From positions 389,776 to 453,775 of the forward strand of contig CAYSBJ010000001.1 of NCBI GenBank assembly GCA_964429275.1: DNA of 64,000 nucleotides. Direction: 5' to 3'. Under the pieces are notes generated by a model. That model was not told the origin of the DNA. It made no database searches and was given only the letters and a program-made list of their open reading frames with translations. This DNA is from an uncultured Pseudomonadota bacterium. GTDB taxonomy: Bacteria; Babelota; Babeliae; Babelales; JAUPTZ01. The position numbers and the translations under genes were made by a program. Positions within the stretch are counted from its first letter, which is position 1. Every line of letters starts with the position of its first letter. Positions 10,804-54,862 of the stretch are shown here, piece after piece.

Positions 10804-10867
10804 TCTGTGATTGTTGGTTAGGATTGCGCCTGAGTACCCCACGCTTCGATTTAGATTGTTGTATCTT

Positions 10868-12010
10868 ATGTTAGACCGATTAAAACTTGCTGTATCTTTG
10901 GAGCAGCTTTCCGAGAAGCTTTTTCCTGATGTAACCCAGACCTTGAGTGCTGCAGTAGCGATGTATCGCCGCATTGCAGCTGACCCAACGTTTGAGGCGC
11001 GGGCTCGTGATGCGGAAGCTTCATTTCTGGTGCCGTCATGGCAGCGTAATTTATGCGATTTTTATCTTTACGAACCGGCATCAGATTATTCTGTGCTGGC
11101 GGTTGATGGCTCGCAGGTCTATCCCGATCGCCACATTGCCGGAGCAGGATGCTTTCTGTTAAACGTTGGCGGTGCCCGATTTACCTATAGTAATGAAAGT
11201 TCTGTGGACTTTTTTTCAGATCCTGAGGTTTGCCCATTTACCGATTTTGCGGCAGGCACTGAGGCCGTTTCTGTCGACACCGTTGATTTGCTCCGTGAAG
11301 CGCGTGAGCTAAGTCGCGCGGTTGTTGAATCAGAAAAACTAACTGATACTGAGTCGGTGGTGCTTATTGATGGTACCATTATTTTTTGGATGCTCGAGGG
11401 AAAAACAACTGAAGTTCGCACTTATTTCATGAATGAATATTTACAGCAACTTAACGCATTGTATGAGAGAAAAATGGTCTGCGCCGGTTATATTAGTATG
11501 CCTAAGAGCCGAGAGGTCATGAGCTTAGTAAAGCTGGGGCTCTGTCGGTTTAGTGTAGCCAATTGCGCCCCGTGCCATGCGGTTTATGATACCTTTCCCT
11601 GCAAAATAATAGATTCACTGGTTGATGCCCATCTGATGAGCCAGCTCTTGGAGCCGGGCCAGCGAAGCACTCTTTTTGCTACTTCTTCACATATTTCAGC
11701 TGATTATCCAGCTTATCTAAAGCCTTGGTTTTTCTATCTTAATGTTGGCACAGAAATCGTGCGACTTGAGATTCCTGCCTGGGTTGCTGAGGATGAGCGC
11801 TTTGTTGCTCGCGTATGCCGGGTCGCTCTTGATCAGGCAGAGAAAGGGGGTGGGTACCCAGTTGTTCTGGCGGAAGCACATGAGCAAGCGGTGGTAAAAG
11901 CAGTCGATCGCGAGTTCTTTTACCAGCTTATTACCAAAATTGGTATGCAGCGGAACCGTACGGTTCGTTCGTCGTTAAAAAGTGTTACCAAGCGTAGCAT
12001 GAGATTTTAA
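10868..12010 (+). CDS. nurA: NurA-family nuclease
   Basis: LAVDGSQ, LIDGT, GYIS, RLEIPAW and C-terminal GYPVVLAEAHEQA motifs. Confidence 0.88.
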   Translation: MLDRLKLAVSLEQLSEKLFPDVTQTLSAAVAMYRRIAADPTFEARARDAEASFLVPSWQRNLCDFYLYEPASDYSVLAVDGSQVYPDRHIAGAGCFLLNVGGARFTYSNESSVDFFSDPEVCPFTDFAAGTEAVSVDTVDLLREARELSRAVVESEKLTDTESVVLIDGTIIFWMLEGKTTEVRTYFMNEYLQQLNALYERKMVCAGYISMPKSREVMSLVKLGLCRFSVANCAPCHAVYDTFPCKIIDSLVDAHLMSQLLEPGQRSTLFATSSHISADYPAYLKPWFFYLNVGTEIVRLEIPAWVAEDERFVARVCRVALDQAEKGGGYPVVLAEAHEQAVVKAVDREFFYQLITKIGMQRNRTVRSSLKSVTKRSMRF

Positions 12011-13900: not shown

Positions 13901-13919
13901 TGTATCTTGAGGTCTTACT

Positions 13920-15296
13920 ATGTATAAACATGTATTGCATATTTTTCGTCGTGACTTGAGGCTTGTTGATAATAGCTCATTGTTGTTTGCGGCGGACTCT
14001 TCTAAGGTAAGTGTCGGTTTTATTTTTGATACTACGCAAATAAGTAAAAATAATTCTTATAAGAGCCTGCCGGCACTTTCTTTTATGGTTGCGTCTCTTG
14101 AAGAACTTGCACGGGAAGTGCACCAGCGCGGAGGAGCCTTCAATTTTTGGTATGGTCACCCAGAAACAGTTCTTGAGAAAGTATTAAAAGAATCTTCTAT
14201 CGACTGTGTTACGGTGAATGAGGACTATACTCCTTTTAGTAGGGCTCGCGATGAAAAAATAGCGGCTGTATGCAGTAAACATGGGGTTTCTTTTGTGTCT
14301 CATCATGATGCCCTATTGACTCCACCTGGTAAGGTGTTGACTAACGCAAGAGAGGCTTTTAAGGTTTTTACACCATTTTATAAGGCCGCAGCGGCAGAAG
14401 TTGTTGCAAAACCGCAGATACACACAGACTTTTCATTCGTAAAAAGACTTCTTCCTGAGGCTGATGGGGAAATTTTATATGAACGTATTTTCGGTGGTGG
14501 TCAACGTCATATGCCAGAAGTTTTAGGGAGTGCTCGTTCTGGCGGGCTACGTATGCTTAGAAAGGTCGGGAGTCTTCAGGAATACGAAACAGAGCGGAAT
14601 TATCCTTTTTTAGATGCGGCAACTACTCATTTAAGTCCTCATAACAAATTTGGCACGGTCTCTATCCGGGAAGTGTATTGGGCAATAAAAGATGCCCTTG
14701 GCTCTAAGGCGGAGCCAATTCTGCGGTCTCTTTATTGGCGTGATTTTTTTACCCATATTCTTTTCGCTAAGCCAACTGTGCTGGGGCATGCCTATAAAGA
14801 ACGTTATGATGAGCTATGGTGGGAGAATGATGAGAAGAAATTTGCTGCCTGGTGTGAAGGCAGGACCGGCTTTCCTATTGTAGATGCTGGCATGCGAGAG
14901 CTTAGTAAGACTGGATATATGCATAATCGTGTTCGTATGATTACGGCTTCATTTCTTGTGAAAGATCTGCACATTGACTGGCGATGGGGTGAGCGTTATT
15001 TTGCTCAGAAATTGACGGACTATGATCCTGCGGTTAATAACGGCAATTGGCAGTGGGTGGCCTCAACGGGGTGTGATGCTCAGCCGTATTTTCGTATTTT
15101 TAACCCCTGGCTTCAGCAAAAGAAATTTGATCCAGATGCTGAATATATTAAGCGGTGGGTGCCGGAATTAAAGTCTTTTTCGGCTGCAGCAATTCATACG
15201 ATCTTTAAGAAGCCGGTAAAGGGTTATATAGTACCTATTGTTGATCATGCTGCTGAGAGTAAAAAGGCGCTCATTGCCTATAAAAAAATAGTTTAG
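13920..15296 (+). CDS. phrB: Deoxyribodipyrimidine photolyase (class I CPD)
   Basis: FRRDLRLVDN, WCEGRTGFPIVDAGMREL, MHNRVRM, DYDPAVNNGNWQW, PYFRIFNP. Confidence 0.95.
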   Translation: MYKHVLHIFRRDLRLVDNSSLLFAADSSKVSVGFIFDTTQISKNNSYKSLPALSFMVASLEELAREVHQRGGAFNFWYGHPETVLEKVLKESSIDCVTVNEDYTPFSRARDEKIAAVCSKHGVSFVSHHDALLTPPGKVLTNAREAFKVFTPFYKAAAAEVVAKPQIHTDFSFVKRLLPEADGEILYERIFGGGQRHMPEVLGSARSGGLRMLRKVGSLQEYETERNYPFLDAATTHLSPHNKFGTVSIREVYWAIKDALGSKAEPILRSLYWRDFFTHILFAKPTVLGHAYKERYDELWWENDEKKFAAWCEGRTGFPIVDAGMRELSKTGYMHNRVRMITASFLVKDLHIDWRWGERYFAQKLTDYDPAVNNGNWQWVASTGCDAQPYFRIFNPWLQQKKFDPDAEYIKRWVPELKSFSAAAIHTIFKKPVKGYIVPIVDHAAESKKALIAYKKIV

Positions 15297-15406
15297 TAAA
15301 AATGTTTTTGCTCCGTGAATACGTTTTTATTTTATCGCATGAACTGTTTCGGAGGTATACTTGTATTACAACTATTGATTCTAGTAGGCTTTGTTGTGTG
15401 GGGGAT

Positions 15407-16888
15407 ATGAAAAAACCTTTAAATTACTTTTTTTTGTGTATGATCTTTTCTATCGGTTTATCTGCTGCTGAAGAGCCTGATTTTTCTCGGCACACCGAGC
15501 TTGTTGATCTTTTGCAAGATCAGCCGGAATGGTCGCGGGCTTGCCGAGTGGTTAAGCTTGCGCTATCGGCTGCCGAGAAAGGAGAGTCTCTCCAGTTGCA
15601 GGAAGAGCGTTGGGCTCGAGCTGCAGAGCTTCTGGCGAAGGTGGGGGGCAAATTTTCTCCTGCGCGTGAGTTGCGCCTACTTTGCGGAAAAGAAGAAGAG
15701 CGTTTAAAGAAAAAACGCCGTTTGAGGCGCTTATACGCAATCGGTGGGACGATAGGGGGCGCAGGCTTGCTTGCTTTTCTGTGGGCCAAAAAGAATGCAA
15801 GAATGAGAAGGTTTGATTACGGAGAAGACTCTTCGCGTGTTGTTCCGTATCAATCATCTGTAGGGGTGGCAGATGAGGTGAGAGCGGCTTCCTATCGGCC
15901 TTCAACAGAGAGTGTTCGTTCTACCTCGAGGTGGCAAGAATCGGCTGTAACTTTCCCGCAGTCTTCCTCTTCATCATACGGTGCCTCGCGATCGCAGCAG
16001 GCGATTGATCGCCCGCAGAATGTTTCGCAGACGGCGTCATCTACATCAAATGCCACTCTGTTGGATAACTCAAGAAATGCGGTGAATGTAAGGGGCCAAG
16101 GATCGACTGGAGCTTTGCCGGAATCCTCGCCTTTGTCATTCGCTGCCTGGCGGCGATTGCAGCGGCCGACTGATTATCCATTGAATGTTTCGCAGACGCG
16201 GTCATTTACATCAAATACTACTCCGTTGAATAACTCAAGAAATGCGCTGAGTGCAAGGGGCCAAGCAGCGACTGTAACTTTTCCTGATCGCCCACTAAAT
16301 GTTTCGCAGGCGGTGTCATCTACATCAAATACCACTGCGTTGAATGCGGTGAGTCCACCGACTGGAGCTTTGCCGGAATCCTCGCCTCTGTCATACGCTG
16401 CCTTGCGGCGATTGCAGTGGCTGACTGATCGCCGATTGAATGCTTCACAGACGGCGTCATCTAGATCAAATATCACTCCGTTCACGGTGCAGGATAATTT
16501 TCCTCGTTTGGTGTCTTCGACGACAATGCCTGCTCGAGTAATTCGTCCATTGTCGTCAGGTGTAGATGTAGACGATAGTTGGTTTAAGCTTATTGAAAAA
16601 AGTGAACCAACTCCTGGCGCTGCTCGCGAAACAAATGTGTATTGTAGACTTGAGGATGCAGCGGTAGCAGCCGGACCATGCTGTTTGTGTCTGGATAATT
16701 ATAAGGCTGGTGATTCGGTAGCCTTTTGTTCTACGTCAGAGAAGCATGTTCTGCATACCGCGTGCGCATTAGAGTGGTTAGAGCAAAGAAATGAGTGCCC
16801 ACTGTGTAGGGCTGTGTTTTGTTCACCAGGCGAGCAGATTTCATGTATTATTTACCCTGACGTAGCGGCACTCGCAACTAGAGATTAA
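15407..16888 (+). CDS. Signal-peptide/TM protein with Ser/Thr-rich repeats and a C-terminal RING-H2-like finger
   Basis: MKKPLNYFFLCMIFSIGLSA signal; TM YAIGGTIGGAGLLAFLW; C-terminal CCLC-x12-C-x5-H-x2-H-x2-C-x3-W-x6-CPLCR. Confidence 0.85.
   Translation: MKKPLNYFFLCMIFSIGLSAAEEPDFSRHTELVDLLQDQPEWSRACRVVKLALSAAEKGESLQLQEERWARAAELLAKVGGKFSPARELRLLCGKEEERLKKKRRLRRLYAIGGTIGGAGLLAFLWAKKNARMRRFDYGEDSSRVVPYQSSVGVADEVRAASYRPSTESVRSTSRWQESAVTFPQSSSSSYGASRSQQAIDRPQNVSQTASSTSNATLLDNSRNAVNVRGQGSTGALPESSPLSFAAWRRLQRPTDYPLNVSQTRSFTSNTTPLNNSRNALSARGQAATVTFPDRPLNVSQAVSSTSNTTALNAVSPPTGALPESSPLSYAALRRLQWLTDRRLNASQTASSRSNITPFTVQDNFPRLVSSTTMPARVIRPLSSGVDVDDSWFKLIEKSEPTPGAARETNVYCRLEDAAVAAGPCCLCLDNYKAGDSVAFCSTSEKHVLHTACALEWLEQRNECPLCRAVFCSPGEQISCIIYPDVAALATRD
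16007..16482 (+). repeat. Mosaic intragenic repeats in the RING protein
   Basis: Four copies of a D-R/Y-x-x-N-V/A-SQ...S-T/R-SN module and two near-identical copies of actggagctttgccggaatcctcgcct. Confidence 0.9.
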
Positions 16889-17182
16889 ATCGGGTATTGA
16901 TTTCGTCATTGATAGCAGATTGTCTGCGGAGGCTTGTCCCTCAATTCTATTGTAGACTTTGACTTTGCAAAATCGCTTTCGTTCTGTTTAGGATAGCTTT
17001 GTTTTTTTATTTTAAATTCTTGTTGAGTGTGATGACCGCTTTAAGATGATTGCCTTGTATCTTGCGTGTTTTTTTCTTGTTGTTGAGTGTTTTGCTTAGT
17101 GTTTAAATCTTATTTTGTTTACTTAAAAAGGCTATTTGTGTAATCATAGTTAAAGTAAGTATTTACTTTTCTTGGGAATTTT

Positions 17183-17926
17183 ATGTTTAGGCATTGCTTT
17201 TTGGCGTTTTCTATGGTTTTCTTCTTCGTTGTTTCTAGTAATCTTTTAGCTGCAGATTCTCCGCGCTTGCCATCTCCTGTTATTCCAGCATCATTAGTCG
17301 TTTATCATAAAATAATTAAAGATATGAGCCTGCCTTTTGCGTCGTTGAATGATGAGTCTTCTGGTGAATCAGTGATTGCGGTTGATTCTGGAGCATACCA
17401 ATGCGTTGCTATTACTTTGGAGAATACAGACTCCACTGCTTCTGTAGAGATCTCAGATGATATATTTAGAGAAATATTACGTAATAATGAGTCATTAATC
17501 GGGAGACTTTTGAGTGAAGCAGAGCTTAACTTTTTGAAGATTCATTGCTCTGGTCAAAATGTTAATGCCCAAAATACGTGCTCGACTTTTCGTTGGATTC
17601 CATTATTTATTGGTTTTAGTATGGTAATTGCGGGGATAGTTCTTCAAACTTATTCAGGAATTGATACTGCAGCCGGTATGCTTGGCTTTTTTGGATTTTG
17701 TTTGTCCGGCTGCAGTGTTTTATCATGTTGGCGCTCTCATAGAAGAAGGCGTTCGGTCATACATCCTTCTGGTGATGTTGATTTTTCTATCTCAAGAGAA
17801 AAACAAATGCTTTTTCGTCTTGAGCCAGGAGCAAGCGTTACTTTTAACATTGCTATGAAGCTCGTGGAAGTGAGTCATCATAGTGAAGTTCCTTCTTTGG
17901 ATGGTAGTGCTTCATCTGAAGAATGA
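17183..17926 (+). CDS. Hypothetical exported protein with a bilobed hydrophobic hairpin
   Basis: N-terminal signal; WIPLFIGFSMVIAGIVL...AAGMLGFFGFCLSGCSVL followed by RSHRRRR. Confidence 0.7.
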   Translation: MFRHCFLAFSMVFFFVVSSNLLAADSPRLPSPVIPASLVVYHKIIKDMSLPFASLNDESSGESVIAVDSGAYQCVAITLENTDSTASVEISDDIFREILRNNESLIGRLLSEAELNFLKIHCSGQNVNAQNTCSTFRWIPLFIGFSMVIAGIVLQTYSGIDTAAGMLGFFGFCLSGCSVLSCWRSHRRRRSVIHPSGDVDFSISREKQMLFRLEPGASVTFNIAMKLVEVSHHSEVPSLDGSASSEE

Positions 17927-17930
17927 TTAT

Positions 17931-19058
17931 TTAGACGTTAAACCTGATATTGAGTACGTCACCGTCAACAACGATATACTCTTTGCCTTCAATTCTCATT
18001 TTACCAGCTGCTTTTAAGCCCGCTTCGGTTTTGTGTTCAAACAAGTCTTTGGCATTGTACACTTCTGCGCAAATGAACCCGCGTTCAAGGTCGGAGTGAA
18101 TAGTGCCAGCCGCTTGGGGTACTTTGGTATTCTGCATGATTGACCAAGCATGTGCTTCTTTTGGTCCGCAGGTAAAAAAGGTGATCAGGCCGAGGCGACT
18201 ATATGCGGCGCGAATAATCTCGGAGAGACCAGTGCAAGAAAATCCAAGGCTTTCCATCATTTCTTTTGCTTCAGCATCGTCCATTTGTGCAAGTTCAGAT
18301 TCAATCTTTGCGGAGACCGCAATTACGTTTTCTTTGCCGAATTGTTTAACGACTGCTTGATAATGCTTATTGTTTTGATAAGCGTTATCGATTAAGTCAT
18401 CTTCGCTTACGTTTGCGATGAAAAGAGCTTTTTTGCCGGAAAGAAGTGGAATGGTTGTTATGCCTTCTGCTGCGGCATTTGCGATTGCTGTTTGTACTCC
18501 GTGATAGTTGCAGGCATCGAGCAGTGGTTTAACTTCATTGAGGAGTGTTAATTCTTGGTCAAGTTCTTTTGCTTCTTGTGATGAGAGAGATTGTTTTCCT
18601 TTGCGTACTTGGTGTTCTACTTTTTGAATACGTTTCTCAACGGACTCTATATCTTTCAAGCAGAGTTCGGTTGCGATAGTTTCAAAGTCTCCGAGCGGAT
18701 CGACCGTGTTATTGACATGGGTTATGCTTTCATCGTCAAAGCAGCGTAATACATGCAGAATAAGGTCAACCCCCATGATGTTGCTGAGGAATTGATTGCC
18801 GAGCCCTTCTCCTTTGGCAGCTCCTTTCACCAAGCCAGCAATGTCAACAAACTGAACGGTGGTCGGGATAAGTTTTTGGGAGCCGAAAATGGCGGCAAGC
18901 TTTGATAGGCGTTCATCAGGGACTTGAGTTATGGCAAGGTGTGGGTCAACGGTACAGAACGGATAGTTTTGGGCCGGGATTGATGATTTAGTGAGTGCAT
19001 TGAAAAGGGTTGATTTGCCAACGTTTGGAAGTCCTACGAGTCCTGCTTGTATTGCCAT
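17931..19058 (-). CDS. ychF: Redox-regulated ATPase YchF
   Basis: GLVGLPNVGKSTLFNALT, NYPFCT, DIAGLVKGA..GEGLGNQFL, TGS domain. Confidence 0.97.
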   Translation of the reverse strand: MAIQAGLVGLPNVGKSTLFNALTKSSIPAQNYPFCTVDPHLAITQVPDERLSKLAAIFGSQKLIPTTVQFVDIAGLVKGAAKGEGLGNQFLSNIMGVDLILHVLRCFDDESITHVNNTVDPLGDFETIATELCLKDIESVEKRIQKVEHQVRKGKQSLSSQEAKELDQELTLLNEVKPLLDACNYHGVQTAIANAAAEGITTIPLLSGKKALFIANVSEDDLIDNAYQNNKHYQAVVKQFGKENVIAVSAKIESELAQMDDAEAKEMMESLGFSCTGLSEIIRAAYSRLGLITFFTCGPKEAHAWSIMQNTKVPQAAGTIHSDLERGFICAEVYNAKDLFEHKTEAGLKAAGKMRIEGKEYIVVDGDVLNIRFNV

Positions 19059-19188
19059 GAAAGTGCCTTACGAATTGAATGTTTTTAAGAATGGCGGCGA
19101 GTATACACAGAAACGCTGTTATTATCCACGCCGGGAGACTCTTGTTGTTATTTGTCGTGCTTTGGTATAGTTAAGCTTTGGGGGGGGT

Positions 19189-19929
19189 ATGAAAAAATCA
19201 AAGTTAACAAGTAGTCTGCTTATTGTAGCGCTTTTAGTGTCAACAGTTGAATGTATAACCGGTGTGCGAACAACAAAGCAAAAAGTGTATGCTGGTCTTG
19301 GCATTGGTATGGGCGCGCTGGGAGCGTATAATACCTATAAGCTCTGGAAAAATCACAAGAACCGGAAATTTTCTGCTTTGAGTCGATCGCAGAGGCTGAT
19401 TGAGCTTATGAAGACACTGGGGTTGCTCTCGAGCGGTGGATTAGTAACTTATTTGGCGTTGCGTCAGCCTGGTGCGGCAGGGATTATGGTTGCTCCTGGG
19501 ACTTCGCAATCATCGGCGCTAAGTGGTGGTGTGCAGTCAAAGGCAAAAGAGCAGGCGTTTGAGCAACTTACTCCTGGCTTTGACCTTAATACTGGACATC
19601 GTGAGAAAAAAGAAGGACTTGTCCGTGGTTTTTTAGCCCCTGTTGAAGGGCGCTTTGCAAGTCTAGAATCGTATGGGTATTTTCTTGCGCTTGCGAGTGG
19701 ACGAATGCACGGTTTAGATAATCGGGATTATTTTGCTGAGCCAACGCTTCGGCATCTTCAAGCAGTAGTCGAAGACAAGATTAATAATCGCGTTCCTGAA
19801 GCTGCTTCGCTGGATACTCTGGGTAGGGAGGTGGCAAAGAAGTTTTGTGAACGCTACGACAAGAGTTCATATCCTCAGCTTAAGAAGTTATCCAATCAGT
19901 TTAAGACAGCTTTTGCCTTAAAAAACTAA
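19189..19929 (+). CDS. Hypothetical exported/membrane protein
   Basis: 246 aa; signal-like N-terminus and two Gly-rich hydrophobic segments; GGGGG RBS. Confidence 0.75.
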   Translation: MKKSKLTSSLLIVALLVSTVECITGVRTTKQKVYAGLGIGMGALGAYNTYKLWKNHKNRKFSALSRSQRLIELMKTLGLLSSGGLVTYLALRQPGAAGIMVAPGTSQSSALSGGVQSKAKEQAFEQLTPGFDLNTGHREKKEGLVRGFLAPVEGRFASLESYGYFLALASGRMHGLDNRDYFAEPTLRHLQAVVEDKINNRVPEAASLDTLGREVAKKFCERYDKSSYPQLKKLSNQFKTAFALKN

Positions 19930-26776: not shown

Positions 26777-27463
26777 ATGGTATCATCCGCAACCGATTTG
26801 CGCGTCAAGGAGCTTCTTCGTGAGAAGCGCTGGACGACCAAGATGCTTGCCGAAAAGACTGGCATGTCCGAGAGCTACTTAACACACATCAAGAATGGCA
26901 CTCGCCGGTGGAACGAAGATATCTTAAAGCGGCTATCTGAAGCTTTTGAGATTCACCCTATCGAGTTGTTCAGCGTGCGTAAGCGGGCGGCGGCAGAGCG
27001 TAAAGATCGGGTTGCAAAGCGTGAAGGCGGGGAAGTTGCCCCGGCCATTGTGCCTAAAATTGTACCGGTTATGAAAGAAATTCCGGCTCACCCATCTCCT
27101 TATACTAACCAAGTTACCCAAATGACCACCGGTTGCAAGGATATGTTTGTTCCCGTTATCGGCTGTGACGACCCGGACATGTTTTGTGTCAAGCTTGACG
27201 TAAATACCCTTCGGCCAGAGTTTCTGCGGGGAGACTATCTGATTGTTTCACCGGCCGCCGAAGTCTCTTCGGGTGATGTGGTAGCGATTGAGTTTAGTGC
27301 TTCTGGTCGGCAGGTTCGCCAGTTTATGCAAATTTCTTTTGTGGAAAATTTCATCATTCTGGAGTCGCCAAGCCATCGGCAATCGCCGGTTACAGTGGCA
27401 AAAGGGAAAGATGCTTATCGTATTATTGGTAAGGTCATTTACCGCTATCAGAAAGTCGACTAA
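26777..27463 (+). CDS. XRE-HTH plus S24-like (LexA/CI-type) transcriptional regulator, copy 1
   Basis: HTH LAEKTGMSESYLTHIKNG; C-terminal GDYLIV, GDVV, RIIGKVI; AAGGAG RBS. Confidence 0.9.
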   Translation: MVSSATDLRVKELLREKRWTTKMLAEKTGMSESYLTHIKNGTRRWNEDILKRLSEAFEIHPIELFSVRKRAAAERKDRVAKREGGEVAPAIVPKIVPVMKEIPAHPSPYTNQVTQMTTGCKDMFVPVIGCDDPDMFCVKLDVNTLRPEFLRGDYLIVSPAAEVSSGDVVAIEFSASGRQVRQFMQISFVENFIILESPSHRQSPVTVAKGKDAYRIIGKVIYRYQKVD

Positions 27464-27533: not shown

Positions 27534-27636
27534 GTAACCCGGCAAAGGTTCAACCTCGTAGCTTGGGGAACGTGGGGATGTGTCCTAGTTCAGTGATATA
27601 ACAGAAGGTGTAGGTATACTTAATATGGAGTCAGCT

Positions 27637-28326
27637 ATGGTATCTACAAAACTGCGAGTGCGAGAGTTGCTCAGAGAGCGACGGTGGACCACTAAAGTAC
27701 TGTCTGAAAAGACCGGAATGTCGGAAAGCTATCTCACTCACATCAAGAATGGAACAAGACGTTGGAATGAAGATGCGCTGCGCAAGCTTGCTGGGGCATT
27801 TGAAATGGAGCCAATTGAGTTATTTGCTCACCGGCGTCAACAAAAAACGACTGAAAATACGGCGGTTGCTGCCAATCCGGTGGTTCCTTCCGATCCTGCG
27901 TATGCAAACTTGAAGATACGAATTGTGCCGGTGACCGGTGAAATTCCTTCATATCCAAGCGAGTACAATAATCAGATAGTTCAAATGGCTTCTGGTTACA
28001 AAGGAGTTTTTGTTCCGATTTTCGACTGCGAGGACCCGAACGTGTTTTGTTATGCGGTCGAAGATAGTAGTTTGTTGCCGACCTTTACCAAAGGTGATCA
28101 ATTAATCATTTCACCGGAAGTGTGGACTCGCTCTGGTGACGTTGTTGCGGTTGAGTACGGCAGTACTGAAAATCCGACAAAAGCTATTGTCCGTGTAAAT
28201 TTTATGGATGAATTTGTGATTCTTGAATCAATCAATCACAAAAAATCCCCTATCGTGTTGGTGCGTGGCAAAGACATGTTCCGCATTATTGGAAAAGTTT
28301 TACATCGTTATCAAAAAATGATGTAA
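27637..28326 (+). CDS. XRE-HTH plus S24-like transcriptional regulator, copy 2
   Basis: HTH LSEKTGMSESYLTHIKNG; GDQLII, GDVV, RIIGKVL; GGAG before ATG 27637 (alternative start 27625). Confidence 0.9.
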   Translation: MVSTKLRVRELLRERRWTTKVLSEKTGMSESYLTHIKNGTRRWNEDALRKLAGAFEMEPIELFAHRRQQKTTENTAVAANPVVPSDPAYANLKIRIVPVTGEIPSYPSEYNNQIVQMASGYKGVFVPIFDCEDPNVFCYAVEDSSLLPTFTKGDQLIISPEVWTRSGDVVAVEYGSTENPTKAIVRVNFMDEFVILESINHKKSPIVLVRGKDMFRIIGKVLHRYQKMM

Positions 28327-31309: not shown

Positions 31310-31795
31310 TTATCGATCGCTTTTTGGCATAAGAAATGCCACTAAGTCTTTGTGTCCCGCTTTGTAAGCACAGTCTATTGCAGATTCGCCATCGGCGTTT
31401 TCCACTTCGGCGTCTGCGCCAAGTTCTTCGACTAAAGTTTTGGCAAGCGGTGCGTCTCCGGATAGCGCTGCCAGGTGCAGTAATGTGTTTTTTTTATCAT
31501 CAAGTTGCAGGCTAGCGAGCTTTGAATCGTTTATATCTGGATTTGCCGCAAGAATAAGTGTGCGATGAGGGGCTGGTTGATTTAATGGTTTCTCACAATA
31601 AGGAGAAAGACTGAGTGTTAGCGAGCGCGTATCCTTGGTGGAGGTTTTTTGGTTGCTGTAAGTCCTGTATAGATATACGCTTGTGCCAATAGCGGCCCCG
31701 GTTAAGAGGATGGTGCGTAATTTTATTCCGTGAGCACTCTGTGCCGTGGTGGTGAGTAGTAGTGTTAGGGCGAGTGATTTGCTTAGCATATTCAT
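31310..31795 (-). CDS. Small exported ankyrin-repeat protein
   Basis: Signal peptide, TM ILLTGAAIGTSVYLY, ankyrin NTLLHLAALSG...LVEELGADAEVENADGESAIDCA. Confidence 0.8.
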   Translation of the reverse strand: MNMLSKSLALTLLLTTTAQSAHGIKLRTILLTGAAIGTSVYLYRTYSNQKTSTKDTRSLTLSLSPYCEKPLNQPAPHRTLILAANPDINDSKLASLQLDDKKNTLLHLAALSGDAPLAKTLVEELGADAEVENADGESAIDCAYKAGHKDLVAFLMPKSDR

Positions 31796-31987
31796 GTTGT
31801 TGTTCCTGATGAGTAGTAAGGGCATTTGGCTGCGGCGGGGCATTCTCCCATAAAAGTGGCAGTCGGGTCAATTGGGGCAGCGGAAAAAAGTATCTGCTGT
31901 GCATGAAATAGGCCCTTTTTCCTCTATGCGTTGTTTCCTCCTCACGGACTTTATTAGAGTTAATGAAGTTACTTGAAGGGGAATGTG

Positions 31988-42441: not shown

Positions 42442-44607
42442 ATGAAAACCAGCTACAAAGCACTTATTTTTTTGAGCCTTATGGCGACAGAGATAATTAG
42501 TTCTTCTGCGGATGCGACTATTGCACCACCAAAATCAGTAGAGTTGCCATCGATGGTTTTACCCCTTTCCCTTGCCATGGCGGGTGTTATATGTGGCAGT
42601 GGGGCTTGGTATGTCCGTCGTCGACTGAAAAAAATTAATTTACATGAGCGGGCCTCTGTTGAAGGAATTGCGAGAAGTCGGCGGAATAAAATAGTGGCTG
42701 ATATACTCAGCGTGCTGGCTGCGGCTTCTGTTTCTGGGGCAGTTATTGCTGAAATAGTTCGTCGTCGAAAGACAAACGCTGAAAAAGCAAAAGAAGATCC
42801 TTCGGTAGTTGTTGCTGCAATTGATAAGAATGATGCACGGTGGATTGCTGCCTCTCTTAATCCTGAGCGTCAGCTTGAGTTGCGTAATGGTCAGGCGACT
42901 ACATTACATCCGCTTGGCTATTCGATGCTCCACCATGCGGCGCTTGCTGGCAAGCGTGAGGGTATAACGGCGTTATTGCATAACCAACGTATTATTGATG
43001 AAGTGCTTCTTGAGAGCTCAGATTTTAATGGTTGTACGCCACTTATGCTTGCTTGCAAGGAAGGAAAGTTTGATAACGCAGAGCTTTTTATTGCGCTTGC
43101 GGGAGAGGGAAGTGCGGGAGCAGAAAAGGTTTCGCGGGATGGCAGAAACGCGCTTCACTATTTGGTGAATCACCCAAGTGAGAAGGTGCATCAGCAGGAT
43201 ATAATTGAAGTGGCTAATAGGCTTATTAATAAAGGATGCAATCCAAATGCGCGTATGATAGAACCGGCTGCAGAAAAGTCGAGTGCTGCCTTGTTGGCGC
43301 CATTACCCGGGGACATTAAAAGTTTTGATATGCTCTTGGATCTAAAGAAAATGGAATTTAATGCAGCGACTAAAGTGGCGCGGCAAAGGGTTTTTGATGA
43401 AGCGCGGAGTGTGGTTGTTGCGCAGGAGTTAGATGCTGAGGGAGGGGATACTCCAGGAGCAATTGCTGCGGCACAAGGGTTGGACGACGTGGTTGCGTAT
43501 TTGAATTGGTACAGTGAAGTTAATCTCGAGACCGAAGAGCGAATGCCCAACGGACGAACTGCATTAATGTACGCAGCGAGCTGCGGCGATGACGATGAGG
43601 TGCGAACGCTTATTGCACAAGGTGCTGATGTGACGGCCGTTGATGTGCGTGGGAACAATGCTTTGCACTATGTGGCTGGCCTTGACTGTGGCCGTGAGCC
43701 TTTGCATCGAAAAAACGCAAATGAGTGTTTAGCTGCGGCTTTATTGTTGCTTGAAAAAGGGTGTGATAAGGAGCAGCGGAATCACGATGGTGAGACTCCT
43801 GCTGAAATAGCCGATAGAGTGAGTAATAATCTTATTGCCGATAGAATTCGCCGGCATGTGCCGCCTCTTGTTATAGAGGAGCCGACTCGGGGAGAAGAGG
43901 CGCCGTTGCCAGCAAATCCTGATTCTTTATATACATTGGTTAGAGCCTTGTATCCGGACAGTGGCTTTTTTGCGCAAGAAGCCCTGCTGGTGCCTGATGA
44001 CATTGATGAGTTCGATAGCGATCCGACGCATGACGAATTAGTTCGTGAGGAAACAAGGGCTGCAGTGATAGAAAACGAAAAAAAGGCTAATAGGTTTGAG
44101 ACTGCAGAAGAAACGGCGGAAAATGCTGTTTTCATAAAGGGGCTTAAGCGCTCCTTGCGTCGCTATATCAAATCGCTTATGCCGCGAAAGTCGGCGCTTG
44201 CGCAAGCAGAGCTTACGCGCAAACTTGCTGAGCGCGAGGAGGTGCTTGGTGCAGTAAAGGACCCTGCTCACTTTATGCTTACTCCGCGTGAAATAGAGTA
44301 TCGGGCAAATTGCGCACAAGAACATTTTAAGAAAAGGGCTTTTGCTTTTGAAGGCCTTCTTCGTGATACTGCTGCTCAAATACGGGCTGATGCTGAAAAA
44401 GAACATGGGGCTCCGCTTGTTTCTGCACGAACAATGACGACTGATGTAAGCTCTGTCTCAAGTAGCGAAGATGAGTCGGTTATTCGTGACTTTGGGGTGG
44501 TGCATTCTGTTGAGCTTGATAGCACTGGCGGTGATTCGCTACCAGGTGATTTGTGTCCCCCGCGACTGGTGGATATGTCTGGGGTGTTTCATGAGCCGAC
44601 AACCTAG
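42442..44607 (+). CDS. Exported, membrane-anchored ankyrin-repeat protein
   Basis: Signal peptide, two TM segments with a basic linker; ankyrins GYSMLHHAA, GCTPLMLAC, GRNALHY, GRTALMYAA, GNNALHY, GETPA. Confidence 0.9.
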   Translation: MKTSYKALIFLSLMATEIISSSADATIAPPKSVELPSMVLPLSLAMAGVICGSGAWYVRRRLKKINLHERASVEGIARSRRNKIVADILSVLAAASVSGAVIAEIVRRRKTNAEKAKEDPSVVVAAIDKNDARWIAASLNPERQLELRNGQATTLHPLGYSMLHHAALAGKREGITALLHNQRIIDEVLLESSDFNGCTPLMLACKEGKFDNAELFIALAGEGSAGAEKVSRDGRNALHYLVNHPSEKVHQQDIIEVANRLINKGCNPNARMIEPAAEKSSAALLAPLPGDIKSFDMLLDLKKMEFNAATKVARQRVFDEARSVVVAQELDAEGGDTPGAIAAAQGLDDVVAYLNWYSEVNLETEERMPNGRTALMYAASCGDDDEVRTLIAQGADVTAVDVRGNNALHYVAGLDCGREPLHRKNANECLAAALLLLEKGCDKEQRNHDGETPAEIADRVSNNLIADRIRRHVPPLVIEEPTRGEEAPLPANPDSLYTLVRALYPDSGFFAQEALLVPDDIDEFDSDPTHDELVREETRAAVIENEKKANRFETAEETAENAVFIKGLKRSLRRYIKSLMPRKSALAQAELTRKLAEREEVLGAVKDPAHFMLTPREIEYRANCAQEHFKKRAFAFEGLLRDTAAQIRADAEKEHGAPLVSARTMTTDVSSVSSSEDESVIRDFGVVHSVELDSTGGDSLPGDLCPPRLVDMSGVFHEPTT

Positions 44608-46831: not shown

Positions 46832-47893
46832 ATGAATGAATTATTAAAAATGTTAGTGCTGGTTATAGCTGGCGGCTGTCTTGGGGCAGTGGTTTATCGG
46901 TGGTATAGCAAAACATCTGAGCCGGTTGATACACGGCCGGTAAAGCATGTGGCGATACTAACAAAAAACCTTGAAGTGCATAGGGAGGTTCTTGTCGGTG
47001 TTTTAGCTGTTTTAGAGAATGAGAAACGTGTTCGAGTAATTCCACGCATTTATTGTAGTGACGTAAAAAACAAAATCACTGAAACTAGCATTACCGAACA
47101 AGCAATTGATGATAAACCAGATCTCATTTTAGCTATTGGCGATGGGCTTTCTCAGCTGGCAAAAGGGATCATTTCAAAACGAAGGCCTGCATTGCCTTTA
47201 GTGTTTTGTGCTGTTACTGACCCGCTGGTCTCTGGGCTGATAGAAGCACTTGAGAAACCTGGGTGCAATGTTACTGGAGTGGCGTGCTTTGCTACAGATA
47301 AGACGTTATGCCTACGACTTTTAATAAAGGCCTTTCCTTTGGTTAAGCGTGTTTTGCTTCCTTATTATGTCGAGTCTAACAGTGCTGTTGAAGAGGCTGC
47401 GCATGAAATTGCTGCTTGTGGGAAGAAGTGCGGTATAGAGGTTGCCTTACTGCCTATTGATGGTCGTCAACATGCCATAATCTTAATTCAGGAGTGGCTT
47501 CGAGCTTGCGATGCAGTGATGATACTTCAGAACTGTAAAATACAGGACATTGCTGAAAATATTGCAAAATTAGCTCGCCAATATGGTGTGTTATTTTATT
47601 CTCCAAGTAGGGCACTGGTGCTCAAGGGAGATGCTCCGATTGGATTTGGAGTACGTATGGATAAGATAGGGCTCGATGCAGCTAAAATTGCTTGTAAGAT
47701 CCTGGTTGAAGGTGTATCCCCTCACGAAGTACCTGTTGAATTTGAACAGTACAACCAAAGTTTTTTTATTAATCGGGAAGCTTTATTGAGCCAAGGAGTG
47801 CCAATAGATCAAGATCTCTTGCTTCTCTTATCGCAAGCCGAATTTGTCTCACCAAATGAAGGGGTTGAAGATGCCAGCAAGAACAGCATTTAG
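46832..47893 (+). CDS. ABC substrate-binding protein (ABC_sub_bind/PF04392-like) with N-terminal anchor
   Basis: PDLILAIG, PLVFCAVTDPLVSGLI..LEKPGCNVTGV, IG..AA.IA.KIL.EG.SP.EVPVE, FIN. Confidence 0.85.
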   Translation: MNELLKMLVLVIAGGCLGAVVYRWYSKTSEPVDTRPVKHVAILTKNLEVHREVLVGVLAVLENEKRVRVIPRIYCSDVKNKITETSITEQAIDDKPDLILAIGDGLSQLAKGIISKRRPALPLVFCAVTDPLVSGLIEALEKPGCNVTGVACFATDKTLCLRLLIKAFPLVKRVLLPYYVESNSAVEEAAHEIAACGKKCGIEVALLPIDGRQHAIILIQEWLRACDAVMILQNCKIQDIAENIAKLARQYGVLFYSPSRALVLKGDAPIGFGVRMDKIGLDAAKIACKILVEGVSPHEVPVEFEQYNQSFFINREALLSQGVPIDQDLLLLLSQAEFVSPNEGVEDASKNSI

Positions 47894-48911
47894 TTTTGGG
47901 CCCAAGCAGCTCCGTAAGGCAATACTGCGTTCAAAATCGGTTAATATTGCGGTTTTAATGAAAGATTTGCCGGAGCATGAAAGCATTTTGGATGGGTGTT
48001 TAGATGAATTATCGTTGCGAACATCGGTAAAACCATCCATTACTCGTATTCCAGGTAATTTTAAGTGGTGCGAAGTGCATGCAATTGCTCTTGAAATTGT
48101 TAAGAAACGGCCAGGCTCTATTGTTACAATTGGGGTTCTTTGCAGCCAATTAATGCGTCAAGTACTTAAAGAGGAAGGAGTTGATATCCCTCTCTTTCAT
48201 GGCGGGGTTGAAAGACCTGAGTTCTTTGGCTTGTTGCCTTCGCTCACGGAGCAATTTCGCGCTACAGGTGTTACTGGTGGTCAGCCGATATATACTGCAA
48301 CGATGCATGTCTTGAGTGTTCTAAGGCCTCAAATGAAGCATCTCTTAATTCCTTACAGCGTTTTGGCAGCTGGTGGGATGCTTACCAATGCAGTTGCTGT
48401 TGCCAAGCGTTATTGTGAGAATCGAAACATTAAGATAACTGTTGCACCGTTTTTTCGCGGAGAAATGCCTATGGAGCGTATAGCCTCCTGCTTTGATGGG
48501 GTCGATACGGTCATGTGTTTCGAGGGATGTGAGACTCATTTGTATAAAGAAGCACTCATCGCTGAGTGCAAGAAAAGGGGTGTTGTCGTGTATGGTGGCA
48601 GTCCTGATCTGCTTAAGCAAGGAGCTGCGTTGGGCCATGTACTTGATTACAGCTCTATTGGTAAGGCTTTGGCGCGGTATATTTATAAAGCCCTATGGCT
48701 TGGCATGCCGTTAAGCTCATTGCCGTTTTTGTCTCTTGGTGCTAATGCGCGCCGAATTGTAATTAATGAAGAAGTGGTAAAAGAGCTGGGGGTTACTTTT
48801 GATGAAGATGTCATGCATCTAATTCAAAGGGGTACCGTGTACGGTAATATCTTTCTTGGGGACGCCGGTATGCTGCTTGGTGAAGAAATGCCAGAAAAGG
48901 AGGAGTACTAA
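47871..48911 (+). CDS. ABC substrate-binding-like protein, no signal peptide
   Basis: IVTIG, IPLF.GGV..P..FGLL, ATGV, KHLLIPY, LLKQGAA, DY..IGK, IVINE. Confidence 0.75.
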   Translation: MPARTAFSFGPKQLRKAILRSKSVNIAVLMKDLPEHESILDGCLDELSLRTSVKPSITRIPGNFKWCEVHAIALEIVKKRPGSIVTIGVLCSQLMRQVLKEEGVDIPLFHGGVERPEFFGLLPSLTEQFRATGVTGGQPIYTATMHVLSVLRPQMKHLLIPYSVLAAGGMLTNAVAVAKRYCENRNIKITVAPFFRGEMPMERIASCFDGVDTVMCFEGCETHLYKEALIAECKKRGVVVYGGSPDLLKQGAALGHVLDYSSIGKALARYIYKALWLGMPLSSLPFLSLGANARRIVINEEVVKELGVTFDEDVMHLIQRGTVYGNIFLGDAGMLLGEEMPEKEEY

Positions 48912-48912
48912 G

Positions 48913-49845
48913 ATGAACATCGAAAAACGCATTGCAGTCCTTTCACGGGCTCGGTATTCGTACCATCGTCAACTTGGCATGGGTTTCTTGGAAGGCCTCG
49001 ATTTGTTTACCGGGCATATTGATGATTGGGAACCAATTATGTTTTTCTCTCGTGAAGCCCATCGTGACATTATGCGTGAGCGCGTTAAAGATGTTATTGC
49101 CCAGGGGCACGACCTTATTCTGCCAATAGGTGCGCTGTGGAGTGAGATTGCCATAGAGTATGTCCGTGAATACAATGTTAAAACTCCAGTGCTTTTTAGT
49201 GGTGTGACCGATCCGGTGGCGCTGAAAATGTTGCCGACGTTGGCCCCTGATCATCAGGTGACTGGCGTAGTTATGGAACAGTTTAGTTGGGTGCGCGTGG
49301 CAGCCATGCTGTTAAAAATTAAGCCGCATATGAAACGAGTGATTATTCCGTATTATCGACATGCAGAGAATGGCCTGGTTGAGGAGCGCCTCAAGGAGGT
49401 GCAGGCGTATTACGCTACAAAAGAAGTTGATTGTATCCTGTACGCGGTTGATATAGTCCGGTCTTATCCCCAAGAAATGCATGACTTTATGTTGAAATCT
49501 GATGTCATTTGGTCGTTTGAAGGCGGCTTTTTGGACGTCTATAGTAAAGATCTCATTGAAATGTGTAATGACCACAGTATTACTTTTTTCTCCAATAATG
49601 CAGCTCACTTGGCGCAAGGGGCGGCTCTTGTTTTTGCGATACCGGACTTTACCGCCATTGGCCAGGCGTTGGTGCTGCAGGCGTATCAGTTGCTTGAAAA
49701 AGGCAAACGGCCTGATCAGGTACCAATTATCACCTTGCCCAACGAGCGTCGCATGATGATTAACCCGGTTGCATGTAAGCAACAAGGGATTGAAGTGGAT
49801 GAGAAATTGTTGGTGGCTATACGCGCTGGGATGTTTACGATATAA
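48913..49845 (+). CDS. ABC substrate-binding-like protein, no signal peptide
   Basis: DLILPIG, PVLFSGVTDPV, VTGV, KRVIIPY, QGAA, DF.AIG, GKRPDQVPI; AGGAG RBS. Confidence 0.8.
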   Translation: MNIEKRIAVLSRARYSYHRQLGMGFLEGLDLFTGHIDDWEPIMFFSREAHRDIMRERVKDVIAQGHDLILPIGALWSEIAIEYVREYNVKTPVLFSGVTDPVALKMLPTLAPDHQVTGVVMEQFSWVRVAAMLLKIKPHMKRVIIPYYRHAENGLVEERLKEVQAYYATKEVDCILYAVDIVRSYPQEMHDFMLKSDVIWSFEGGFLDVYSKDLIEMCNDHSITFFSNNAAHLAQGAALVFAIPDFTAIGQALVLQAYQLLEKGKRPDQVPIITLPNERRMMINPVACKQQGIEVDEKLLVAIRAGMFTI

Positions 49846-54348: not shown

Positions 54349-54862
54349 CCCCAGGCTTTTAAACCTGGGGATTAAAGCGTAGCCTTAAAGCGCAAGCAAA
54401 ATCTAAGATTTTGCTAAGCGATGGTGTTTGGCGTATTCTGCAACTATGAAGTATTATTGGACGGGAGCACATTGTAAACATCGGCTTATGTATCACTTAG
54501 TTTGGATTCAAAAATACAGGAAAAAGCTTCTGAAGGGAGCATTATCTGCGTGACTAGAGGAGCTCTTCAAAGAGTGTGCAGAGGTAAATCGTTGGGCGAT
54601 TCATGAGTTAAATATTCAATTGGATCATGTGCACATGTTGGTGCAATTGAGGCAGGGTGTCTCTGTGAGCAGGGCAGTGCAGCTATTCAAAGGTGTTAGT
54701 AGCAAAAAAATTAGAGAAGAATACCCTGAACTGGAAGAGTTTCTTTGGGGGGATAGCTTCTGGTCAGATGGCTATTTTGCTGAGACAGTAGATCAATTGA
54801 GCGAAGATCGCATGCGTGAATACATTAAAATCAATAGGTATATCTTCATTCAGGTCAGATGA
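54349..54862 (+). mobile_element. Degenerate IS200/IS605-family element (left-end hairpins plus tnpA, no tnpB)
   Basis: ccccagg-cttttaaa-cctgggg (54349-54370) and agcaaaatc-taa-gattttgct (54395-54415) upstream of a Y1 transposase. Confidence 0.8.
54446..54837 (+). pseudogene. tnpA: IS200-type Y1 transposase pseudogene
   Basis: MKYYWTGAHCKHRLMYHLVWIQKYRKK..., in-frame TGA at 54551, HUH DHVHML, FWSDGYFAETV, EYIK; one extra A near 54830 would restore YIKNQ*. Confidence 0.88.

Follow-up and report, generated by a model that had tools for sequence, protein, structure and literature searches.

What would a bacterium do with a protein built like a eukaryotic transmembrane ubiquitin ligase? The question is raised by one gene in a stretch of 64,000 nucleotides (nt), here called the window, from an uncultured Dependentiae bacterium (GenBank assembly GCA_964429275.1, contig CAYSBJ010000001.1, positions 389,776 to 453,775). 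The gene lies on the plus strand at 15407-16888, stop codon included, and, according to the list of open reading frames (ORFs), the translation, and the Pfam matches, it encodes a membrane-anchored RING-H2 protein of 493 amino acids (aa). We think it moderately probable that this protein is a lineage-specific, fast-evolving effector of an intracellular bacterium, directed at the host and mimicking eukaryotic transmembrane (TM) RING-H2 ubiquitin ligases (E3s). In what follows, G000 is the bacterium's own genome and G001 to G005 are other genomes of its family, among which G004 comes from a congener.

A eukaryote-type RING-H2 finger by sequence and predicted fold

Judged by sequence comparison and by a structure model, the C terminus of the protein is a genuine eukaryote-type RING-H2 domain. 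The finger lies at 16679-16810 (plus strand; residues 425 to 468), exactly where the first-pass annotation of this DNA had described it, and its proposed ligands, from Pfam, alignment, and model, are C425, C428, C441 (a displaced third cysteine, C3), H447, H450, C453, C464, and C467. The comparison with zf-RING_2 (PF13639) that had been suggested as a check passes the curated cut-off of 27.3 bits, with 35.0 bits for the whole protein, 39.0 for its 95-aa C terminus, and 39.6 in a six-frame search of the genome. The 95-aa C terminus also passes zf-C3HC4_2 (28.4 bits; cut-off, 27) and zf-C3HC4 (21.4; cut-off, 21), while with the whole protein zf-C3HC4_2, zf-rbx1, and zf-ANAPC11 match below their cut-offs. 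Only RING-type families appear for this protein in Pfam at an E value of ≤1, with none of Prok-RING_1 to _4 and no PA domain among them.

The relatives of the finger point the same way. In a sequence search of the PDB, the best matches are all eukaryotic RING-H2 ligases, headed by human RNF24 (E, 9.6e-8) and continuing with RNF126, RLIM, gp78/AMFR, RNF13, Praja-1, RNF4, Arabidopsis RMR1, Arkadia, ZNRF3, EL5, and HRD1. A HMMER search of 1.84 billion representatives returned 2,293 proteins at an E value of ≤1e-3, the single-finger matches scoring 44 to 49 bits at about 40 to 55% identity; a word-index search with residues 410 to 493 returned the protein itself as its sole match. A cluster look-up of the 10 best library matches yielded one named protein, a multi-RING protein of Nymphaea, and we claim no donor. 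In an alignment of 53 sequences with the consensus CxICL..Y..GD...CxHxFH..C...WL.....CPLCR, residues C425, C428, H447, C453, W457, C464, P465, and C467 are invariant and H450 is nearly so. L427, W457, P465, and R468, which we take to be the E2-contact positions and the linchpin of RING-H2 ligases (E2 being the ubiquitin-conjugating enzyme), are present and fall in invariant or consensus columns.

AlphaFold2 run on the 53-sequence alignment predicts a β-hairpin followed by a helix, with block means of the predicted local distance difference test (pLDDT) of 80 to 94 over fragment residues 21 to 80. When this model was compared with the PDB by Foldseek, every listed row was a RING or U-box entry, as a cross-brace RING fold would lead one to expect, and the fits include RNF165 (1.6 Å over 48 columns), Arkadia (1.3 Å over 49), EL5 (1.5 Å over 50), and RNF13 (1.6 Å over 50). 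Together with the Pfam score and the four residues just named, this predicted likeness supports the earlier assignment to the eukaryotic RING-H2 type. A single-sequence AlphaFold2 model of the C terminus was poor (mean pLDDT, 53.9) and was not used.

A native bacterial gene

A domain of eukaryotic type is what one would see if eukaryotic or viral DNA had been misassembled or misbinned into the bacterial genome, and four small contigs of the assembly do look foreign: C4 to C7, of 4 to 13 kb, have a guanine-plus-cytosine (GC) content of 60 to 70%, against 46% in C1 to C3, and probably come from outside this organism. The RING gene, in contrast, sits within the 570-kb contig C1 of a 1.21-Mb, 98%-complete genome, where the GC content around it is 46%, as in C1 to C3. 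The genes on both sides are ordinary bacterial ones (ABC-F, photolyase, YchF, MiaB-like, HU, ribosomal proteins S6 and S18, BipA, PheS, and prepilin peptidase), with ankyrin-repeat proteins among them, a Shine-Dalgarno-like site precedes the gene, and its position is syntenic in the congener G004. A 12-kb contig of one sequencing run, which may be the assembly's own source, covers the whole of the gene's stretch, and 27 of the 30 bins into which 15000-17300 was divided reappear unchanged, the repeats and the RING included, in contigs belonging to a second sample of the same study. Runs X3 and X4 yielded a single short contig apiece, on which we base no conclusion. Contig size, GC content, and synteny with the congener therefore exclude contamination as far as these data go, in line with what had been expected from the flanking genes, and we regard a foreign origin of this kind as scarcely credible. 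The RING gene is native to its bacterial genome.

The sole database relative of the whole protein is an NCBI entry, "MAG: Ring finger domain [Candidatus Dependentiae bacterium]" (P0003 in our set), which is the orthologous ORF of G004 letter for letter. A scan of the genome contigs with the whole protein returned no relative.

The frame is open over 15302-16888 (plus strand) and offers two starts. We favor the ATG at 15407, as the first-pass annotation did, over that at 15302, because a Shine-Dalgarno-like GGGGGA, read from the sequence, stands just 5' of it at 15400-15405 (plus strand) and because the G004 orthologue begins at the corresponding MKK; no such run precedes the ATG at 15302. In scans for promoters and terminators the counts were close to those of shuffled sequences, and no terminator was found 3' of the gene.

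Layout of the protein

The finger is the last domain of a protein that begins like an exported one. Residues 1 to 21 (15407-15469, plus strand) form a hydrophobic leader, MKK followed by a hydrophobic core and LSA/A, that we read as a putative Sec signal peptide; the Kyte-Doolittle hydropathy peak is at residues 3 to 23, and the cleavage site is a heuristic reading. It is followed by an N-terminal domain of about 80 aa (15470-15706, plus strand) that matches no Pfam family and would be extracytoplasmic. The first 140 aa are 70% identical to those of G004; a profile search for the N-terminal domain gave no significant relative in 200 other genomes of the phylum, and the ESM Atlas gave no usable match for residues 1 to 140. 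Next, at 15707-15787 (plus strand), come KKKRRLRR (residues 101 to 108) and the Gly-rich TM helix LYAIGGTIGGAGLLAFLWA (residues 109 to 127; Kyte-Doolittle hydropathy, 1.54), with KKNARMRR immediately C-terminal of the helix.

The linker (15788-16678, plus strand) is rich in Ser, Thr, Ala, and Arg; over residues 136 to 420 (285 aa) these account for 17, 9, 10, and 9% of the composition. A repeat search and motif matching found four imperfect direct repeats in it (DNA family D1, at 16006-16066, 16171-16231, 16285-16345, and 16426-16486, with 77 to 85% identity), which at the protein level begin at residues 201, 256, 294, and 341. Tandem Repeats Finder detected no array within 15300-16900, and BLASTP of the protein against itself gave the identity match alone. 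Beyond the finger, a C-terminal tail of 25 aa (16811-16885, plus strand; taken from the translation) has a model pLDDT of 57 to 63. The leader, the basic stretch before a Gly-rich TM helix, and the partly repeated Ser/Thr-rich linker had all been noted in the first reading of the sequence, and each of them stands.

Two further features of the linker may be mentioned. Residues 205 to 357 (16019-16474) hold 9 N-x-S/T sequons, where shuffles of the same composition have 4.1 ± 1.7; at least 9 were reached by 54 of 5,000 shuffles, and since the sequons lie in the repeats they are not independent. The string GALPESSPLS(F/Y)AA..RRLQ occurs twice and could be a short linear motif.

A constant front and a replaced tail beside ychF

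The gene order NurA, ABC-F, phrB, RING gene, 247-aa gene, ychF is identical in G004, and against this common background the RING protein stands out. NurA, ABC-F, phrB, and YchF are 94, 95, 86, and 97% identical between G000 and G004, and the product of the 247-aa gene is 72% identical, so that it changes more slowly than the RING protein and faster than the housekeeping neighbors. The RING protein itself is 59% identical over 177 aa only (62% over residues 7 to 182 in a second alignment). At the DNA level, blastn against G004 finds similarity at 13901-15781 (84%) and 17067-19100 (86.5%) and none between. The intervening segment, 15782-17066 (plus strand), begins where the TM helix ends, stops 116 nt short of the next gene, and amounts to a replaced cassette: between two congeners, the whole of the protein beyond the TM helix has been exchanged, which is new here. 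The two protein tails retain a weak alignment across the fingers (24% identity over 83 aa; E, 0.002), and the G004 finger is repatterned.

The same architecture recurs in the wider family. In each of the six genomes, an ORF adjoining ychF or one gene away from it has a hydrophobic segment at its N terminus and a TM-like one farther in, together with a Cys-rich or RING motif, an arrangement likewise reported here for the first time. The fingers themselves vary. The ORFs of G000 (493 aa; 35.0 bits) and G001 (414 aa; 28.6 bits) exceed the zf-RING_2 cut-off, that of G004 (580 aa; 24.8 bits) falls below it, and that of G005 (369 aa) reaches 27.3 bits with zf-RING_5 against a cut-off of 27.9. The G003 ORF (598 aa) is Cys-rich without a Pfam RING, and that of G002 (360 aa) stands on a contig that ends just past a CPVC motif. 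In sum, a Pfam RING is detected at this locus at an E value of ≤1e-4 in four of the six genomes and over the cut-off in two.

G001 offers the same pattern within one genome. Its two tandem paralogues (L027 on contig C10, 3175-4419 and 4694-6103) are 87% identical over residues 1 to 161 (93% at the DNA level) and share nothing beyond; the second copy, of 469 aa, has no significant RING match, and one G001 paralogue has a faint match to Prok-RING_1 (E, 0.091). The tail of one paralogue consists of a mid-protein RING and a 160-aa C-terminal region, that of the other of a TPATAP-type repeat and two Cys-rich motifs. As to the front modules, a hidden Markov model of those of G001 to G003 matched none of the 948 ORFs of G000, hhalign of the G000/G004 modules against those of G001 to G003 gave a probability of 18% (P, 0.0013), and a profile of the G000/G004 module found, across 201 genomes of the phylum, G000 and a single match with an E value of 0.0065. 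Because homology of the front modules is not established, our claim for the six family genomes is one of common architecture and position, not of common ancestry.

A constant front with differing tails suggests the fast, modular evolution typical of host-interaction genes. One could go further and see in the ychF neighborhood a hypervariable effector locus, in which interchangeable tails with different RING-type fingers are swapped behind the TM helix of a conserved leader, ectodomain, and Gly-rich helix, and by which bacteria lacking type III and type IV secretion would plant eukaryote-like TM E3 ligases in membranes of the host or the vacuole, using a Sec/vesicle route. We offer this larger scheme tentatively and consider it doubtful as a whole.

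A displaced third cysteine in the finger

The canonical spacing of a RING-H2 finger is C-x2-C ... C-x(1-3)-H-x2-H-x2-C ... C-x2-C. Seven of the eight ligands of our protein conform to it (C425, C428, H447, H450, C453, C464, and C467). E445, two residues N-terminal of H447, occupies the canonical place of C3, and the nearest upstream cysteine is C441, which leaves a gap of five residues between C3 and the fourth ligand. The C3H2C3 signature with its Trp and CPLCR, as first described, thus holds for seven ligands, W457, and the CPLCR consensus; its third cysteine is displaced, with Glu in the usual place. The five-residue gap had been recognized as unusually long, and a survey of the 149 best library matches, which contain 207 RING-H2 cores, bears this out: the gap was 1 in 159 cores, 3 in 35, 0 in four, 2 in three, and 4 and 7 in one each, four cores lacked a Cys within 8 residues, and a gap of 5 occurred in none. 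Set against these counts, the gap makes the finger look like the "PC-xxx-H" subtype with two extra loop residues.

Such a change could mean that the RING is decaying or noncatalytic, folding and binding without activating ubiquitin-charged E2, whether as an E2 decoy, as a plain interaction module carried by a secreted or membrane protein, or as a domain on its way to being lost. Besides a gap that is absent from all 207 related cores, this reading can draw on the dip of the pLDDT to 82 in the block that holds the displaced-C3 loop of the alignment-based model, and on the family, where the G004 finger is subthreshold and repatterned and G003 has none that is recognizable. Nevertheless, the remaining seven ligands are intact, as are the E2-contact positions, the cores with gaps of 3 and 4 (35 and 1 of 207) suggest that a longer loop may be tolerated, and the frame is open over 493 codons with an identical sequence in the second sample. 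Moreover, SneRING of Simkania, whose site II ligands are likewise described as atypical, is an active bacterial ligase (PMC12591485). On balance we consider loss of catalytic function quite unlikely.

RING proteins across the Dependentiae

The first-pass annotation had relied on the view that bacteria seldom have canonical RING E3 domains, which does not apply to this lineage. Of 201 genomes sampled throughout the phylum, 115 match zf-RING_2 at an E value of ≤1e-4 (105 of them above the cut-off, and with as many as 17 matches in one genome), and so do, at ≤1e-3, 27 of 41 relatives (21 over the cut-off). The match of our protein to zf-RING_2 is far beyond chance, since the same model found nothing in 14 control genomes. 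At 13 loci of relatives that were scanned there are 12 RING ORFs, with an N-terminal hydrophobic segment in six by threshold and in three more by eye. Our protein belongs to a large set in the Dependentiae that is thinly documented. G000 itself holds a second member on contig C3 (L001:346-2199, plus strand), a 617-aa protein with, in order, a short Gly-rich hydrophobic N terminus, basic residues, a Pro-rich spacer, Ank_2 (49 bits), a RING-H2 finger (zf-RING_2, 44 bits), and a C terminus of about 175 aa without a family.

Prokaryotic RING families were reportedly surveyed by Burroughs, Iyer, and Aravind in 2011. For the Dependentiae, the idea has been in print since Pagnier et al. (2015), where one RING protein of Babela is mentioned. 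Our search of the literature on Dependentiae/TM6 and RING or ubiquitin ligases, with subscription papers and supplements outside its scope, returned nothing beyond that one sentence, and in a term search the word RING was absent from Deeg et al. 2019 (PMC6561590). Cultured Dependentiae are described as intracellular parasites whose presumed effectors carry signal peptides. The activity of SneRING from Simkania as a zinc RING ligase was demonstrated in 2025 (PMC12591485). The type-I membrane layout seen here is not described for bacterial RING ligases in the literature searched.

Topology and proposed function

What, then, could the finger be for? In the 98%-complete G000 genome there were no matches to the UQ_con, ubiquitin, U-box (PF04564), or F-box-like models; the control genomes gave none either, so that this means "not found" rather than absent. 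Because none of these models is matched in the bacterium's own genome, a host-directed E3 mimic is our best reading, and the most economical account of the sequence would be that the finger serves to bind a host E2. The leader would direct the protein to Sec, and the single Gly-rich helix would anchor it in a membrane so that the N-terminal domain faces the lumen or the extracytoplasmic space and the linker and RING face the cytosol. Once in a host-facing membrane, either of the vacuole or of a host organelle, the RING would recruit charged host E2 and promote ubiquitin transfer onto itself or onto host proteins bound by the repeat-bearing linker, which may act as a spacer or as a substrate-binding region. 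Vesicle release is one possible route to such a membrane; it has been raised for a cultured relative, and vesicles have been seen by microscopy in cultured Dependentiae, according to the accounts consulted.

Several points weigh against this reading. The most serious concerns topology: a cleaved leader and a stop-transfer helix would leave the protein in the inner membrane and its RING inside the bacterial cytoplasm, away from host E2. Placement in a host or vacuole membrane, as the first-pass annotation had it, is in that respect pure inference and runs counter to the standard topology. Sec and type II (the latter in Babela) are the only secretion systems named for cultured Dependentiae in the reports consulted, where no machinery that delivers membrane proteins to the host is known for this phylum; in the window, the secretion-related genes are a prepilin peptidase and a pilin-like gene only. 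The RING is not conserved, by Pfam score, at the ychF locus among the family genomes. The second zinc site may be weakened, because Glu stands at the C3 position and a gap of 5 is absent from the 207 related cores. The predicted fold counts as consistency and not as independent proof, because the model was built on an alignment of RING domains, and its best Foldseek match in the PDB has an E value of 4.4e-3, with none at ≤1e-3.

The topological objection is at the same time the core of a different explanation, namely that of a bacterial inner-membrane protein with a periplasmic N-terminal sensor or anchor and a cytoplasmic RING-like zinc finger that binds a bacterial partner, without ubiquitin. 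A leader, an ectodomain, a TM helix, and basic residues have this topology by default, and the hydropathy of the helix (1.54) is within the range of transporter helices in the window (median, 1.47 over 98 peaks in six transporters, by crude peak picking). It would also suit a phylum for which the sources consulted know of no effector translocation system, and a RING sequence poorly conserved among congeners at the ychF locus. It is hard to square, however, with the retained L427, W457, P465, and R468, because conserved E2-contact residues want an E2-like partner and none was found in the genome. The finger is closest to eukaryotic E3 RING-H2 domains, with no Prok-RING family in the Pfam list at an E value of ≤1, and many RING proteins of the phylum have an export leader alone, with no later TM helix, and would be exported whole. 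We judge an inner-membrane role unlikely and retain the host-directed E3 mimic as our working interpretation.

More than half of the sampled genomes in a phylum of protist parasites carry eukaryote-type RING-H2 fingers, mostly preceded by export leaders. To these our gene adds a type-I layout in the membrane that imitates eukaryotic TM-RING ligases, and a clear case in which the tail behind the TM helix has been exchanged, seen when close relatives are compared and again between tandem paralogues. Should the protein prove active and arrive in host membranes, it would follow that Sec-type export alone can suffice for a lineage to deploy membrane-embedded E3 mimics, and a defined domain of 70 aa would offer a tractable handle on host remodeling by Dependentiae. 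A RING facing the bacterial cytoplasm would instead be one of eukaryotic type that works without ubiquitin, which is odd in itself.

Neighboring genes and other features of the window

The first-pass annotation had named phrB and ychF as the flanking genes. Pfam confirms both, phrB at 13920-15296 and ychF at 17931-19058 on the minus strand; between the RING gene and ychF there is, however, an extra gene at 17183-17926 (plus strand), which encodes the 247-aa membrane protein. It has a leader, two TM-like segments, and HRRRR, belongs to no Pfam family, and is a syntenic neighbor with no functional link shown. A second small protein gene near ychF, at 19189-19929 (plus strand), encodes a hydrophobic leader and later TM-like segments, also without a Pfam family. 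Upstream, a NurA-domain protein (10811-12007, plus strand; 88.5 bits) adjoins a DEAD-box helicase gene.

Elsewhere in the window, ankyrin-repeat proteins are encoded at 31313-31843 (minus strand) and 42442-44604 (plus strand), in keeping with descriptions of Dependentiae genomes as effector rich. Two LexA-like genes (HTH_3 plus Peptidase_S24) stand in tandem at 26777-27460 and 27625-28323, both on the plus strand, and three consecutive, partly overlapping ABC_sub_bind paralogues occupy 46832-49842 (plus strand). An 80-aa ORF at 54620-54859 (plus strand) matches positions 51 to 119 of 121 in the profile of the IS200-type Y1 transposase and is a truncated remnant. GC skew is positive in every 1-kb bin of 1-64000 and the cumulative skew climbs without a turn, so the whole window lies on one replichore.

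Comparison with known systems

Chlamydiae, the source of SneRING, have type III secretion, and the U-box effectors NleG, LubX, AvrPtoB, and RavN reach their hosts through type III or type IV injection. Like the function proposed here, these U-box effectors are bacterial mimics that activate host E2 through a RING/U-box fold (PMC13720258). They bind no zinc, in contrast to our protein with its Cys/His ligands, and the U-box model is unmatched in G000.

SneRING (SNE_A12920) of Simkania negevensis is presented in a 2026 review as the latest bacterial RING/U-box ligase and the zinc-coordinating one (PMC13720258). By its published description it shares with our protein a zinc-type RING, an obligate intracellular bacterium as its source (Simkania also infects amoebae), atypical second-site ligands, and a proposed action on host membranes or organelles (PMC12591485). 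It is a 25-kDa protein with an N-terminal RING (residues 14 to 72) followed by an α/β domain, and it has Ser at the usual hydrophobic E2-contact position (PMC12591485), whereas the RING described here is C-terminal, comes closer to the consensus, and stands behind a leader and a TM helix. The NEX1b RING/U-box-LRR family of Neochlamydia is likewise an expansion of eukaryote-like E3 domains in an amoeba symbiont; it belongs to another phylum, its N-terminal domain is fused to leucine-rich repeats, and the account consulted describes no TM anchor (PMC4209131). The single RING protein of Babela (Pagnier 2015), mentioned without an architecture in the account consulted, shares phylum, domain class, and proposed role with ours.

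In overall layout, the protein has eukaryotic counterparts. The likeness of a TM-linker-RING arrangement to the ATL/RNF ligases, pointed out at the outset, is upheld by the succession of leader, ectodomain, TM helix, linker, and RING, which parallels TM-RING ligases that are themselves among the best PDB matches. RNF24, RNF13, RMR1, ZNRF3, and rice EL5 provide the closest RING-H2 sequences, and the predicted fold fits EL5 and RNF13 at 1.5 to 1.6 Å over about 50 residues. They follow the same order, with a leader or TM helix first and a RING-H2 on the cytosolic side near the C terminus, a topology that we infer for our protein; unlike them, it is encoded by a bacterial gene, has a C3-H4 gap of 5, and carries a 285-aa repeat-bearing linker. 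EL5 belongs to the ATL group, of which the GLD motif is a hallmark, and our protein has no GLD before its RING. Its ectodomain also differs from that of the PA-TM-RING ligases RNF13 and RMR1 in having no PA or other Pfam domain at an E value of ≤1. With these ligases it nonetheless shares a leader (residues 3 to 23), a single TM helix (109 to 127), and a RING-H2 finger (425 to 468), in what would be the same orientation.

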